64,000 bases of DNA, from positions 32,001 to 96,000 of IMG/VR virus record IMGVR_UViG_3300028533_000484; one strand, 5' to 3'. Shown here piece by piece: positions 9,172 to 61,696 of the stretch. The DNA is from a virus (lineage: Duplodnaviria; Caudoviricetes). The translations under genes and the position numbers were made by a program. The notes under the pieces are model-generated. The model searched no databases, had not been told where the DNA came from, and saw only the letters and a list, made by a program, of their open reading frames with translations. Position 1 is the stretch's first letter; each line of letters begins with the position of its first letter.

Positions 9172-9194
9172 CTATTAGGGATAGTTAATTTTTT

Positions 9195-9268
9195 AGGGCT
9201 ATAACTCAGTTGGCTAGAGTGTCAGCTTTGCAAGCTGAAGGTCGTGAGTTCAAATCTCACTAGTTCCA
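9195..9268 (+). tRNA. tRNA-Ala(TGC)
   Basis: Cloverleaf; TCAGC-TTTGCAA-GCTGA; G3:U70; GTTCAAAT T-loop. Confidence 0.85.
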
Positions 9269-9518
9269 TTTCAAATAAATAATCAGGGTGATATTCAGAA
9301 AACTTCACACTCGTAACAAAGAATCCTAATAAGATTAGGTAGGGCAGGATGGAGATAAATAAGGAAGCGTTGTTCACTTCTCGAAAATTAGCCCGACTCT
9401 TAAATGAGTCACCTTCATCAATTCTATTCAAGGTTGTAAAGCTCGTTAGAGTACCAGGAATAGGAAATCAGTTCAAGTATTACTTGAGCTACTGTAAAGA
9501 CAGAATTACGAACTATCT

Positions 9519-9590
9519 GGTCTGTTCGGCTAGTGGTTAGGCCACAAGGTTTTCATCCTTGTAGCACGGGTTCAATTCCCGTACAGACCT
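9519..9590 (+). tRNA. tRNA-Glu(TTC)
   Basis: GGTCTGT/ACAGACC acceptor; CAAGG-TTTTCAT-CCTTG. Confidence 0.9.
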
Positions 9591-9592
9591 TA

Positions 9593-9712
9593 TCGCAGAA
9601 ATTGTTCCTATTAACTCGGTATCATAAACCAGTAGTCGAGGTTCGAATCCTCGGGTCCCCAATTTCGTGGGGATTTGGTGTAATGGTAGCACGCTATATA
9701 TACAATTCGCGA
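9593..9712 (+). ncRNA. Clamp element 1 enclosing a circularly permuted tRNA (CAT anticodon, 9618-9695)
   Basis: Order is anticodon loop ATCATAA, T arm CGAGG-TTCGAAT-CCTCG, 3' acceptor GGTCCCC, short loop, 5' acceptor GGGGATT, D arm; flanked by AATTGT-TCCT-AT / AT-ACAATT-C-GCGA. Confidence 0.8.
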
Positions 9713-9719
9713 TTTTTTT

Positions 9720-9803
9720 GGAAGTATGGATGAATTGGCAAAATCACCAACCTGCTAAGTTGGTTACCTTCGGGTAGTGCGTGGTCGGGACACGCTGCTT
9801 CCG
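9720..9803 (+). tRNA. tRNA-Ser(GCT), atypical T loop
   Basis: CCAAC-CTGCTAA-GTTGG; long variable arm TACC-TTCG-GGTA; T loop GTCGGGA. Confidence 0.8.
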
Positions 9804-10120
9804 CTAAAGCTAAGCTGTAAAAGTTCCCTACAGATTTAGCAACACTGTTTGACGGTATCAGGTGTAAAAGCTTTACACAAGTCAAAACCGAAAAGAGTAA
9901 TTTGCTTTTCAACTTTGATAAAAACCGGCCTTTCGTAAGCGCTTACGAATAAAAAAGGGAACACCTTTTTTGAATACAGTAATATAGACTTTTCTATATT
10001 GTAAAAAGTTGTGGCTATGCAACTTAAAAAGATACAACACTGCAGGAAGTCAGCTGTTTGACTTTGTTAACGTTGTTACATAGTGTTTGTGAGTTGCTGC
10101 AAACTGCAACTCCTTTTCAA

Positions 10121-10219
10121 CACTGTCTAGCAAAATACAGATAGGCGCGCGCTTATTGCTTATCTAGGATAATGTGCCATTGCGCGATGGAGGTCCAGGT
10201 TCGAGTCCTGGGGCAGTGA
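10121..10219 (+). ncRNA. tRNA-like RNA with elongated anticodon arm
   Basis: CACTGTC/GGCAGTG acceptor; CCAGG-TTCGAGT-CCTGG T arm; no 7-nt anticodon loop. Confidence 0.55.
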
Positions 10220-10288
10220 AAATCGATACTCGACGGAGTTCGATAGTAGGCGACCCATATCCGACGGGAGTGGTTGAATCGTCGAAGT

Positions 10289-10382
10289 GGCTTATTCGTC
10301 TAAGGTTGAGTAACGTCAACTAAAGGTAAGGACGCTGGTGTATATTCACCGGAAATGGTGAGTTCAATTCTCCCATAAGTTA
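10289..10382 (+). ncRNA. tRNA-like RNA with hairpin inserted in the D loop and an irregular anticodon loop
   Basis: GGCTTAT/ATAAGTT acceptor; GGTTGA..TCAACT insert; CTGGTG-TATATT-CACCGG arm; TTCAATT T loop. Confidence 0.55.
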
Positions 10383-10391
10383 CATTTTTGT

Positions 10392-10448
10392 AGTGCATAA
10401 GTTGTTCCTATTGTAAAGAATGCTTTTGGTTTTTATACAACTCGCACT
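10392..10448 (+). repeat. Clamp element 2 (no tRNA cargo)
   Basis: AGTGC-ATA-AGTTGT-TCCT-AT ... AT-ACAACT-C-GCACT. Confidence 0.75.
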
Positions 10449-10673
10449 TTTATTTTTAAGCTAAAACGGTCAAATAACATTAGCAAGCAAGACCTGTTGT
10501 CCGTTATCTGAAGGGTCTCTAAACAAGGTGTTAATGTGTATGACAATTTCTAGATCATGTCACGTGGCTTAAGGGATGAGCCCTTCACAAGGAGTAAGAG
10601 TCTCCGGAGTTATAGGATTAGAAATTGTAACGAAACAGCACCCTTTTGACAGAGGTTGTGATAGGACGTTTGT

Positions 10674-10747
10674 GGAGTTATGGAGCAGATGGTTAGCTCA
10701 GGTGACTGTCACTCACCAGGTCACGGGTTCGAGTCCCGTTAACTCCG
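10674..10747 (+). tRNA. tRNA-Asp(GTC)
   Basis: GGAGTTA/TAACTCC acceptor; GGTGA-CTGTCAC-TCACC. Confidence 0.9.
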
Positions 10748-10808
10748 TACAAAAGTAGCATTAGTGGTTGCAAACACGAGGCTATTGTAGGAAATTCGAA
10801 ATTCCTAT

Positions 10809-10973
10809 CGATTATATGGTGTATGGGTGCACAGCCGGCCCGAGTACTTGACAATAAGGCCTGACGATAGCTTACGACCTGCATTAAGCAGACGACGGAG
10901 CGACAATAGGGCCTGACGATAAAGGAAACAGGTCGGCAGGGTGAGTTAAGGTTCGAGTCCTTCGTATAATTGT
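10809..10973 (+). ncRNA. tRNA-like scaffold with a large repeat-containing domain in place of the anticodon loop
   Basis: CGATTATA/TATAATTG acceptor-like stem, D arm, GCCGGCC/GGTCGGC stem, AAGG-TTCGAGT-CCTT T arm; two copies of GACAATARGGCCTGACGATA. Confidence 0.6.
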
Positions 10974-10979
10974 ATTTAC

Positions 10980-11052
10980 AGCGGGATAAAGCAGTTGGCA
11001 GCTTGCGAGCCCCATAAGCTCGATGTCGAAGGTTCGAGTCCTTCTCCCGCCA
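10980..11052 (+). tRNA. tRNA-Met(CAT), initiator-like 1:72 mismatch
   Basis: CGAGC-CCCATAA-GCTCG; A1:C72 mismatch; C at position 33. Confidence 0.8.
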
Positions 11053-11057
11053 AAACA

Positions 11058-11181
11058 AACGCATAGGTTGTTCCTATTCTCAGAGTTGTCGAGTAGCTCA
11101 ATTTGGTAGAGCACTAGATATCTAATCTAGAGGTTGTGAGTTCGAATCTCACCTCAACGTCCATGATATACAACTCGCGTT
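11058..11181 (+). repeat. Clamp element 3 enclosing a linear tRNA
   Basis: AACGC-ATA-GGTTGT-TCCT-AT ... AT-ACAACT-C-GCGTT. Confidence 0.75.
11087..11163 (+). tRNA. tRNA-Arg(TCT), A33 variant, with encoded CCA
   Basis: CTAGA-TATCTAA-TCTAG; GTGAG-TTCGAAT-CTCAC; ends TCCA. Confidence 0.75.
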
Positions 11182-11199
11182 CGATTTTAGAAAATTATT

Positions 11200-11325
11200 G
11201 TGCCAAAGCTGTTCCTATTTCAAAGGACTGTTAATCCGTGGGTCGTTGGTTCGATTCCAACCTGACTTCGAAATTAAGTAGAAGCAGTAGCTCAGTGGTA
11301 GAGCAACGCAAAATACAGCTCGCAC
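11200..11325 (+). ncRNA. Clamp element 4 enclosing a circularly permuted tRNA-Asn(GTT) (11225-11307)
   Basis: GGA-CTGTTAA-TCCGT, T arm GTTGG-TTCGATT-CCAAC, 3' acceptor CTGACTTC, loop, 5' acceptor GAAGCAG, D arm TAGCTCAGTGGTAGAGC; flanked by AGCTGT-TCCT-ATTT / AAAT-ACAGCT-C-GCAC. Confidence 0.85.
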
Positions 11326-11330
11326 TTTTT

Positions 11331-11404
11331 GCGTTGGTAGTTTAATTGGATAAAACACCGGCCATTCCAGGTCGGAATTATTAGTTCGAATCTAATTCAA
11401 CGCT
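11331..11404 (+). tRNA. tRNA-Gly(TCC)-like with 8-nt anticodon loop
   Basis: GCGTTGG/TCAACGC acceptor, U73; CCGGC-CATTCCAG-GTCGG. Confidence 0.6.
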
Positions 11405-11411
11405 TTTATTT

Positions 11412-11483
11412 GGCCGCTTCGTCTATCGGTTAGGACGGGTCCCTCTCAAGGATCAAAGAGCAGTTCGATTCTGCTAGTGGCTA
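11412..11483 (+). tRNA. tRNA-Glu(CTC)
   Basis: GGTCC-CTCTCAA-GGATC; canonical D and T arms. Confidence 0.85.
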
Positions 11484-11502
11484 ATTTTTAAGGTTGCAAA
11501 GA

Positions 11503-60530: not shown

Positions 60531-60692
60531 TTGGAAAGATTGGAAAGAATTGTAGATTGGCTTTTCGATACACATGATAAGGTTTTGTTTGTTGAAGATA
60601 TTAGTGGTTTTGGAGCTCTATTTCTTTTTGGAACTATGATTTTTGTTGCTGTGTTGTGTTGCAGCAAAAAGCTCAGAAGCAAGTTCTTTTAG
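60531..60692 (+). CDS. Small membrane protein (53 aa, not in ORF track)
   Basis: GAGGT RBS, TTG start, one hydrophobic helix, basic tail. Confidence 0.5.
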   Translation: MERLERIVDWLFDTHDKVLFVEDISGFGALFLFGTMIFVAVLCCSKKLRSKFF

Positions 60693-60750
60693 GTGAATTT
60701 TTCAGATTGCACTAACTATATTACAAGCATAAATTGAAGGAGTAGATATC

Positions 60751-60861
60751 ATGACAAAGACATTTGTAACATCTAATAACATGACAAGTTCTTATCAATG
60801 CTGTGATACTATCCAATATTCATATTGTTCGTCAATCTATTTTAGAGGTGACAACAGTTGA
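60751..60861 (+). CDS. Putative leader peptide 1 (36 aa: MTKTFVTSNNMTSSYQCCDTIQYSYCSSIYFRGDNS)
   Basis: ACTATATT motif, AAGGAG RBS, stop codon abuts an antiterminator stem. Confidence 0.7.
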   Translation: MTKTFVTSNNMTSSYQCCDTIQYSYCSSIYFRGDNS

Positions 60862-60926
60862 CCTTGTGCAAATAAAAAATGTTTGAAGAGTTGCACAGGG
60901 TTCCTAGAAATAGGAACTTTTTTATT
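60861..60926 (+). promoter_or_regulatory. Attenuator 1 (antiterminator/terminator) before tRNA-Tyr
   Basis: ACCTTGTGCAA/TTGCACAGGGT overlaps terminator AGGGTTCCTA-GAAA-TAGGAACTTT-TTT. Confidence 0.7.
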
Positions 60927-60940
60927 CTTCAAACAAGTTT

Positions 60941-61021
60941 GGGTCAGTCGAGCAATTGGTTGCTCAGCGGACTGTAAATCCGTGGCCTATGGCATTGGGG
61001 GTTCGAATCCCTCCTGGCCCA
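60941..61021 (+). tRNA. tRNA-Tyr(GTA)
   Basis: GCGGA-CTGTAAA-TCCGT; long variable arm. Confidence 0.92.
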
Positions 61022-61116
61022 ATATCACATTAAATCAACCAGTTTGTGAAAAGAGTTAATTTTTTTAACTATAATTAAATTATTAGCACTAATTAATTAA
61101 AGAAGGAGAAAAGATT

Positions 61117-61260
61117 ATGAAAAATTTTGTAACAAAACATTCGAACATAATTACAAAACAGATGTGTCAATCTGCTCTCCATACACTTTGCAATATTTTT
61201 GCTGACTCTGATTTTCAAACTAATGGGAAAGTGAAATGCGAAGGAGACTTCAAGTCTTGA
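61117..61260 (+). CDS. Putative leader peptide 2 (47 aa: MKNFVTKHSN...KCEGDFKS)
   Basis: ACTATAAT and ACTAATT motifs, AAGGAG RBS; last codons form the antiterminator strand. Confidence 0.7.
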   Translation: MKNFVTKHSNIITKQMCQSALHTLCNIFADSDFQTNGKVKCEGDFKS

Positions 61261-61321
61261 GATAATTAATAATTTAGTTATTTACAAGGCTTGAATCGAA
61301 AAGGTTCAAGCCTTTTATTTT
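61249..61321 (+). promoter_or_regulatory. Attenuator 2 before tRNA-Ile and downstream RNAs
   Basis: TTCAAGTCTTG (61249-61259) can pair with CAAGGCTTGAA (61285-61295), the 5' strand of terminator AAGGCTTGAATC-GAAAA-GGTTCAAGCCTT-TTATTTT. Confidence 0.75.
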
Positions 61322-61325
61322 GCTT

Positions 61326-61398
61326 AGGATGTTAGTACACCGGTTTAGTATTTTAGTCTGATAAACTAAAGAAAGAAGTTCAACTCTTCTACATCCTA
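61326..61398 (+). tRNA. tRNA-Ile(GAT), AT-rich
   Basis: TTAGT-CTGATAA-ACTAA; AGGATGT/ACATCCT acceptor. Confidence 0.8.
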
Positions 61399-61399
61399 T

Positions 61400-61620
61400 A
61401 TAGTTAAACAAAAGCGTCGATTAAAACTGGTTCGAGTAATTGAGGTAACGTTCAGTAAATGAAAGAACAAAGATAATAACGGACTGAGGTAGAAACATTG
61501 TCAATCTTGGGTGTCCTGCCCGTCAGAAGAGTAATACTCTTCTTCAAGAATAAGGTGACGGATTGATGGTGTTGAAGGTTGGCTGGAGACGGCAGCGATA
61601 AATCCAGTTGAGTTTGACTT
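61400..61620 (+). ncRNA. Unidentified structured RNA (~220 nt)
   Basis: Ends pair (AGTTAAAC/GTTTGACT, AACTGG/CCAGTT); internal CCGTCA/TGACGG and GAAGAG-TAATA-CTCTTC stems; no ORF. Confidence 0.5.
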
Positions 61621-61696
61621 ATTTTTAACATTTTTTATGAAACAGCAATTAGCTTTTCAACTATAATATATATGTTAAAAATATTAAATTATTTAT

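Follow-up and report, generated by a model that had tools for sequence, protein, structure and literature searches.

The locus and its two units

The DNA considered here (hereafter, the window) is a stretch of 64,000 nucleotides (nt) representing bases 32001-96000 of a 140-kb IMG/VR viral contig, IMGVR_UViG_3300028533_000484, with a G+C content of 33%. At the head of its large array of transfer RNA (tRNA) genes there are two consecutive units, each consisting of a promoter, a ribosome-binding site, a short open reading frame (ORF) and an intrinsic terminator followed by a tRNA gene. An original prediction, made from the letters of the DNA alone, had proposed these units as paired leader-peptide attenuators of tRNA expression, and the parts that it had listed (promoter, AAGGAG, ORFs coding for 36 and 47 amino acids (aa) with three Cys each and a TGA stop, terminator, tRNA) were all found where it had placed them. 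The features of unit 1 are the following.

60693..60722 (+), promoter: -35 GTGAAT (60693-98), 18-nt spacer, -10 TATATT (60717-22), within the clade motif CACTAACTATAWT
60737..60742 (+), Shine-Dalgarno AAGGAG, 8 nt ahead of the ATG
60751..60861 (+), leader ORF (ORF1), 36 codons, three Cys, stop TGA
60860..60871 (+), putative antiterminator, 5′ arm, beginning inside the stop codon
60891..60902 (+), putative antiterminator, 3′ arm, whose last 5-6 nt are the base of the terminator 5′ arm
60897..60926 (+), terminator: hairpin 60897-60920 and U-tract
60880..60935 (+), outer stem of 12 base pairs (bp), 60880-91 with 60924-35, enclosing the terminator
60940..61022 (+), tRNA-Tyr (GTA), the sole gene that unit 1 would gate

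Unit 2 is built in the same way.

61046..61075 (+), promoter: GTGAAA, 18-nt spacer, TATAAT
61103..61108 (+), Shine-Dalgarno AAGGAG, 8 nt ahead of the ATG
61117..61260 (+), leader ORF (ORF2), 47 codons, three Cys, stop TGA
61246..61297 (+), putative antiterminator, a long hairpin whose 5′ arm contains the stop codon (61258-60) and whose 3′ arm (61285-97) is the terminator 5′ arm
61286..61322 (+), terminator: hairpin 61286-61314, 12 bp, and U-tract
61325..61399 (+), tRNA-Ile (GAT), first gene past unit 2, 10 nt after the stem

Promoter motifs lie 28-41 nt upstream of the leader starts in both units, and tRNA-Tyr starts 19 nt past the unit 1 stem. A promoter of the tRNAs' own downstream of the terminators, which the original prediction had named as the finding that would speak against it, was looked for in these gaps of 19 and 10 nt, and no promoter motif was present in either. 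Since there is neither a promoter nor room for one between hairpin and tRNA, both tRNAs would depend on read-through of the terminator.

Competing helices at the leader stop codon

The pairing between the sequence at the stop codon and the 5′ side of the terminator, on which the original prediction was built, involves 60861-71 with 60891-901 in unit 1 and 61249-59 with 61285-95 in unit 2, in both cases 11 bp including one G-U. The terminator hairpins were estimated at -10.6 kcal/mol in unit 1 and -17.1 kcal/mol in unit 2, and the unit 2 antiterminator hairpin (61246-61297), which encloses an inner A/U hairpin at 61261-84, matches or exceeds the terminator state in stability.

As a background for this pairing we considered all the 22 terminator-like hairpins of the whole contig, each scored by the best duplex of its 5′ arm with the 57 nt upstream. 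The two units rank first and second, with -17.4 and -14.8 kcal/mol, followed by -9.7 kcal/mol for the next best hairpin and a median of about -5.5 kcal/mol; the complementarity of both units to the terminator 5′ arm is more than chance.

Folding was then examined in eight units, namely the two of the window and six found in related phages (see below). Before the terminator 3′ arm exists, the 5′ arm was paired with a segment at or near the leader stop in all the eight units. When the RNA was masked as far as 12 nt beyond the stop, so as to mimic a terminating ribosome with a footprint size assumed from general knowledge, the terminator was restored in 8/8 units, and the window units then folded the terminator only. 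The folding comparison proposed with the original prediction thus gave the switch from antiterminator to terminator in every unit. The stop codon lies in or adjoins the antiterminator 5′ arm in seven of the eight units and is TGA in all of them, a codon that closes just 10 of the 127 long ORFs in these genomes.

Related phages and further units

Cultured-phage and IMG/VR searches (blastn of the region, tblastn of the portal, neighbouring protein, protein alignments and tRNA-Ile word) returned no usable relatives. Close relatives were obtained among Logan/JGI contigs, L002 and L003 through portal homologues (about 96% protein identity) and L009, L010, L014 and L015 through small-ORF look-ups. 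All of them keep both units. These six contigs are too similar to the window for covariation and only show changes avoiding the stems: substitutions are mostly in the ORF bodies, and the arms are intact except for an A-U to G-U change and loop changes. The unit 1 terminator of the relatives has one additional C, hence an additional G-C pair. In L002 and L003 a 6-nt insertion (L002:334-345, minus strand) puts the unit 2 start 14 nt from the ribosome-binding site, leaving the peptide unchanged.

In all the close relatives an insert of 2.8 kb, absent from the window (between 61030 and 61045; L002:423-3145), separates tRNA-Tyr from unit 2. It contains a gene on the opposite strand for a 650-aa LRR_5 protein, which follows tRNA-Tyr in convergent orientation, and a gene of 203-212 aa. 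Because of this insert, unit 1 would gate tRNA-Tyr alone and unit 2 would be a separate transcription unit.

The leader peptides themselves do not, as far as their sequences tell, behave as a conserved protein family. Neither had a match in Pfam or PHROGs. Between the window and L002, 4/5 substitutions in ORF1 are amino-acid-changing, as are 7/9 changed codons in ORF2. Among 1.84 billion representatives ORF2 had only near-identical relatives, and a profile-free search gave one 85% variant; its other matches were spurious, being translations of tandem repeats, and a suspected connection between ORF2 and the LRR_5 gene next to it was dismissed. ORF1 and ORF2 have their N-termini and a C-x7-C spacing in common.

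More diverged phages were reached in two ways. Homologues of the 212-aa insert gene (43-52% identity) led to the 403-kb contig L016 and to L017, L018 and L019. A scan of genome contigs for the promoter and ribosome-binding-site pattern gave 48 matches, of which 46 had no nearby tRNA and were discarded as chance; it led to two phage-like contigs (L024/L076 and L046/L077) binned in a metagenome-assembled genome (MAG) of Treponema. The eight units so assembled belong to four lineages, and the six outside the window (in L016, L017/L019 and the two Treponema-MAG contigs) have the same build, so that both the architecture and the pairing, whose conservation the original prediction had left to be looked for, are retained in diverged as well as in close relatives. 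These six units and the genes that follow them are listed here.

L016:1683-1928, L016 unit 1, followed by tRNAs for Phe, Thr, Asn, Thr, His, Phe, Met, Asn and Lys (x5)
L016:17768-17964, L016 unit 2, followed by Arg, Gln, Leu, Leu, Pro (x3), transfer-messenger RNA (tmRNA) and Trp
L017:11-266 (= L019:4719-4973), L017 unit, followed by Leu, Gly, Leu, Tyr, Trp, Ser, Gly and Gln
L024:6881-7081, L024/L076 unit, followed by Pro, Leu, Gln, Leu, Gln, Trp and Ser
L077:7988-7698 (minus strand), L077 unit a, followed by Ser(GCT), Glu, Ile, Gly, Asp, Leu, Val, Glu and Arg
L077:605-411 (minus strand), L077 unit b, followed by Thr, Lys and Asn, then the contig end

A promoter near-identical to that of unit 1 heads the units in L016, L017/L019, L024 and L077, and no internal promoter motif was found in the gated arrays of L016 and L017.

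Covariation was evaluated on an alignment of one switch type, containing window unit 2, L016:1845-1928 and L077:411-497. Over these three lineages pairing is 100% in the terminator helix, which has 2 compensatory pairs, and 95% in the antiterminator helix, which has 3; a shift of either partner by a single column abolishes it. In the shared arm, columns 61, 63 and 64 vary, and they do so in concert with both of their partners, which is what one would expect if the two folds are both important.

Codon content of the leaders and downstream anticodons

For each unit we scored what share of the leader codons corresponds to anticodons of the tRNAs downstream and compared it with a null set of 714 short ATG-ORFs from the same DNA. 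Some array tRNAs were counted from Rfam matches that ARAGORN missed at default settings, and a tRNA-Cys detected under relaxed settings only was excluded from the statistics. The share was 1.00 for window unit 2 and 0.81, 0.70, 0.57, 0.53 and 0.53 for further units, versus null means of 0.18-0.82. In unit 2 of the window the array downstream has tRNAs able to read each of the 46 sense codons that follow the start, and the leader has no Pro, Trp, Tyr or Arg codons; in this case the null mean is 0.82 and the value of 1.00 was equalled by 4/714 ORFs. Over the eight units the null ORFs matching the leader were 34, 4, 0, 1, 1, 87, 0 and 0 (of 714), corresponding to a Fisher combined p = 4.6e-11. 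When leaders and arrays were re-paired, 2 of 40,320 arrangements scored as high as the true one, the true one included, and the other presumably swaps two orthologous units.

The same correspondence is visible in single leaders. The first leader of L016 has 25 of its 31 residues after the start from Phe, Thr, Asn, His, Met or Lys (expected share 0.29; p = 5e-9), one run of the L017 leader draws 22 of its 23 residues from Leu, Ser, Gly, Tyr, Trp and Gln, and the central 17 residues of the second L016 leader are almost all Leu, Arg, Gln, Pro or Trp. It extends to the choice among synonymous codons. Precisely, Ser codons are 16 TCN versus 1 AGY before tRNA-Ser(TGA) and 0 versus 5 before tRNA-Ser(GCT) (p = 2e-4), the choice of Leu TTR or CTN follows the anticodon (p = 0.004), and, of the Gln codons, the two ahead of tRNA-Gln(CTG) are CAG and the three ahead of tRNA-Gln(TTG) are CAA. 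In unit 1 the four Tyr codons reported by the original prediction ahead of tRNA-Tyr are there, all TAT, at positions 15, 23, 25 and 30; an extra Tyr occurs at leader position 18 in 3/4 close relatives compared, and the number of Tyr codons is steady at 4-5 among close relatives.

Proposed mechanism

We consider it likely that each unit is a ribosome-mediated (leader-peptide) transcription attenuator gating phage tRNA genes. The sigma-70-like promoter would give a transcript with a strong ribosome-binding site and an ORF of 28-47 codons. The segment at the UGA stop would pair with the terminator 5′ arm and so form the antiterminator, with the polymerase proceeding into the tRNA gene or genes. 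A ribosome that keeps pace would reach the UGA and cover this segment, so that the terminator would form and transcription would end 10-20 nt before the tRNA. If instead the ribosome lags or stalls at a slowly read leader codon, or if there is no translation, the antiterminator would stay and the tRNAs would be made. As phage tRNAs accumulate, the leader would be read faster and the array would shut off; since the leader is written in the codons of the downstream tRNAs, this would be a negative feedback on the phage's own supply of tRNAs. The units are thus probably codon-specific sensors, by which tRNAs are made when ribosomes run short of them, and the circuit would respond also to any loss of the matching host tRNAs.

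The anatomy of the units, the competing helices with their covariation, the codon-anticodon match and the common UGA stop were read from the DNA. From these we infer that the leader is translated, how the ribosome footprint is placed, that ribosome and polymerase are coupled in the host and in which direction the control works. The attenuation by mutually exclusive hairpins put forward in the original prediction is supported, at the level of sequence, by the eight units, the masking folds, the codon match and the covariation. Cleavage of host tRNAs or toxins, which it had named as triggers, are compatible with the mechanism and are a speculation.

Several observations weigh against this interpretation. 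In unit 1 the antiterminator overlaps just 5-6 basal nt of the terminator, removing part of it, and Tyr codons are only modestly enriched (4-5 of 35, with an empirical p of about 0.05), most of the codons being for other residues; taken alone, the codon signal of this unit is weak. The L076 unit matches its array no better than chance, being equalled by 87/714 short ORFs. In L016B the stop follows the antiterminator arm by 5-9 codons, which makes ribosome masking less sure there, and one close relative has a gap of 14 nt between the ribosome-binding site and the ATG in unit 2. A second promoter at 61640-61667, ahead of tRNA-Glu, means that unit 2 would strictly gate only tRNA-Ile and the RNA at 61400-61620. 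Finally, the covariation comes from just three diverged lineages and is therefore supportive, not conclusive.

Alternative explanations

The short ORFs could be ordinary genes for small phage proteins, with their own promoter and a leaky terminator, in which case read-through would be partial and constitutive and the pairing incidental. Small ORFs are indeed frequent in phage tRNA regions, a clearly coding and conservatively evolving ORF of membrane type (53 aa, 60531-60692) lies just upstream, the two leaders share their N-termini and the C-x7-C spacing, and gene callers called both of them in other assemblies. The peptides, though, have no family, and their changes among close relatives are mostly radical amino-acid changes; moreover, this explanation does not account for the codon-anticodon match, the uniform TGA in the competing arm, the outlier complementarity or the covariation of the antiterminator. 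We therefore regard it as very unlikely.

The codon content and the position of the stop also bear on the idea that the long hairpins are elements of RNA processing or stability (RNase III sites, or 3′ protective stems after the cut by RNase P) and not a regulated switch. That the alternative fold of unit 2 is a hairpin of about 23 bp, that unit 1 and L017 have an outer stem peculiar to read-through and ending a few nt before the tRNA, and that U-rich leaders precede many array tRNAs would all agree with such a role. Processing leaves unexplained why the ORF codons mirror the tRNAs, why the stop is in the arm and why the shared arm covaries with two partners; processing could well coexist with attenuation, and as a replacement for it we give it slightly less credit than the small-protein genes. 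Least probable of the three, in our judgement, is a temporal control in which the host polymerase stops early at the terminators and a phage-modified or phage-encoded polymerase reads through later, leader translation being irrelevant. Large phages often alter or replace the host polymerase, and the hairpins with their U-tracts resemble efficient intrinsic terminators, but the antiterminator pairing and the codon match would both be left unexplained by it.

Surroundings of the units

The contig is estimated at 35% of a complete genome and so is part of a very large phage, which is uncultured. The window codes for a GroEL-like chaperonin, baseplate proteins and portal-like proteins, and for at least 35 tRNA genes split over a small and a large array.

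9194-11484, small tRNA array
60358 to 67368 (past the window end), large tRNA array, about 7 kb, with the two units at its head

The first array (9194-11484) was checked for similar leader units and has none. The -10 motif ACTATAWT is enriched in the window (12 observed versus 3.3 expected) and, with a TGAAA-like -35, stands upstream of many ordinary genes and also of tRNA-Arg (60309) and tRNA-Glu (61659); the combination is a credible candidate for a promoter of the host-polymerase type.

The 53-aa ORF mentioned above (60531-60692, plus strand) sits between unit 1 and tRNA-Arg. Its ribosome-binding site is GAGGT, its start codon is TTG (ATG in the relatives) and its C-terminal half is hydrophobic; it changes conservatively among the relatives, unlike both leader ORFs. 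The outer stem of unit 1 can form in read-through transcripts only and ends 4 nt ahead of the tRNA; like its counterpart at L017:202-258, it may be a 3′-end protection after RNase P cleavage. Spacers between tRNA genes that have no ORF and fold strongly were found at 61400-61620 and, further on, up to 63230, with no Rfam match; under the control of unit 2, the first of them would share its transcript with tRNA-Ile. Odd anticodon loops occur in some tRNA-like genes, e.g. 11331-11404.

As for the related phages, homologues of the 212-aa gene lie near tRNA arrays in distant relatives too. In L016 a tmRNA gene (L016:19544-19921, 84 bits) is inside the array gated by the second unit, and this phage would thereby also regulate its own ribosome-rescue RNA via the same switch. 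The same contig has about 0.9 kb without ORFs and fairly G+C-rich after tRNA-Thr(AGT) (L016:16863-17770), which has no Rfam match and may be a large RNA, and a 55-aa ORF with 11 Lys directly ahead of the five tRNA-Lys genes (L016:2948-3115), with no evident terminator, which may be a different or decayed kind of leader. Three contigs with 72-83% portal identity (L005-L007) have flagellin-like genes at the corresponding site in place of the tRNA array. Flagellin-like and FlaA-like (PF04620) proteins were found in relatives at L005:3507-4364, L006:4743-5597 and L007:3131-3997 and in the G001 contigs C19 and C32. These proteins, together with the two related contigs in the Treponema MAG, suggest that the clade may infect spirochaetes.

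Comparison with known systems

The closest known relatives in mechanism are the enterobacterial leader-peptide attenuators of amino-acid operons, i.e. trpL, hisL and pheL (PMC3082878) and the multivalent thrL and ilvL. As in these, a short promoter-proximal ORF has codons naming the product, an intrinsic terminator competes with an exclusive antiterminator, and the stop is placed so that a terminating ribosome favours the terminator; as in the thr and ilv leaders, several amino acids would be sensed at once. The phage units differ in that they gate tRNAs and not enzymes, so that the molecule sensed would be the product itself, and in that their regulatory codons are of many types, for up to 16 amino acids, and not set in runs. 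They are also phage-borne, and no clear 1:2 hairpin (pause or superattenuation hairpin) was seen in them, for which reason an untranslated leader should read through. At gathering thresholds the Rfam matches in the window and in the related loci were tRNA and tmRNA only, with no match to leader families (Trp, His, Leu, Thr and others) or to the T-box; the resemblance to the Rfam leader families is one of mechanism and not of sequence family.

In E. coli pheST, the pheM leader, rich in cognate codons, controls a gene of the translation apparatus by the supply of charged tRNA. Its target is a cellular aminoacyl-tRNA synthetase, whereas the targets of the phage units are viral tRNA genes. Ribosome-stalling attenuators of the antibiotic-resistance genes vmlR (PMC9226507) and msrD (PMC10314930) likewise combine a short leader ORF with a terminator/antiterminator switch that turns slowed translation into read-through. 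In those cases drugs stall the ribosomes and particular peptide motifs are involved, while the codon content of the phage leaders points to tRNA supply. The T-box riboswitch, which is recognised by its specifier loop, T-box sequence and conserved stem I, binds uncharged tRNA directly and needs no ORF; it shares with the phage units the sensing of tRNA status and a terminator/antiterminator switch, but the phage sensor would be an ORF with a ribosome-binding site. Tandem attenuators are known from the Salmonella mgtCBR leader (PMC3641672), where, as in the window, two short ORFs in series are each tied to alternative stem-loops. Both mgtCBR ORFs act on one mRNA leader, whereas each phage unit comes with a separate promoter and a separate tRNA target.

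Searches of the literature returned no description of tRNA genes controlled by attenuation, and we regard these units as a known mechanism put to a new use, in a new variant.

Meaning for phage tRNA arrays

Phage tRNA genes are usually treated as constitutive cargo, which either corrects a mismatch in codon usage or makes up for host tRNAs destroyed by defence nucleases. A phage tRNA-Tyr, for example, counters the tRNA-Tyr-cutting effector of the retron Ec78 PtuAB (PMC11555353). We lean, with less confidence than for attenuation itself, towards a broader reading, in which these arrays would be autoregulated by their own products: a leader barcoded with codons would open the terminator only on slow decoding and would be rewritten as the array changes, giving both a homeostasis of codon usage and a response, when needed, to tRNA-cutting nucleases of the host.

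Being short and self-contained, the units are testable in cell-free systems, and they are possible natural sensors for individual tRNAs. The list of codons in a leader would allow predicting, from sequence only, which tRNAs form one transcription unit. If the codon-matched attenuator is true, the phage would gauge the speed of decoding codon by codon and set its tRNA output accordingly.

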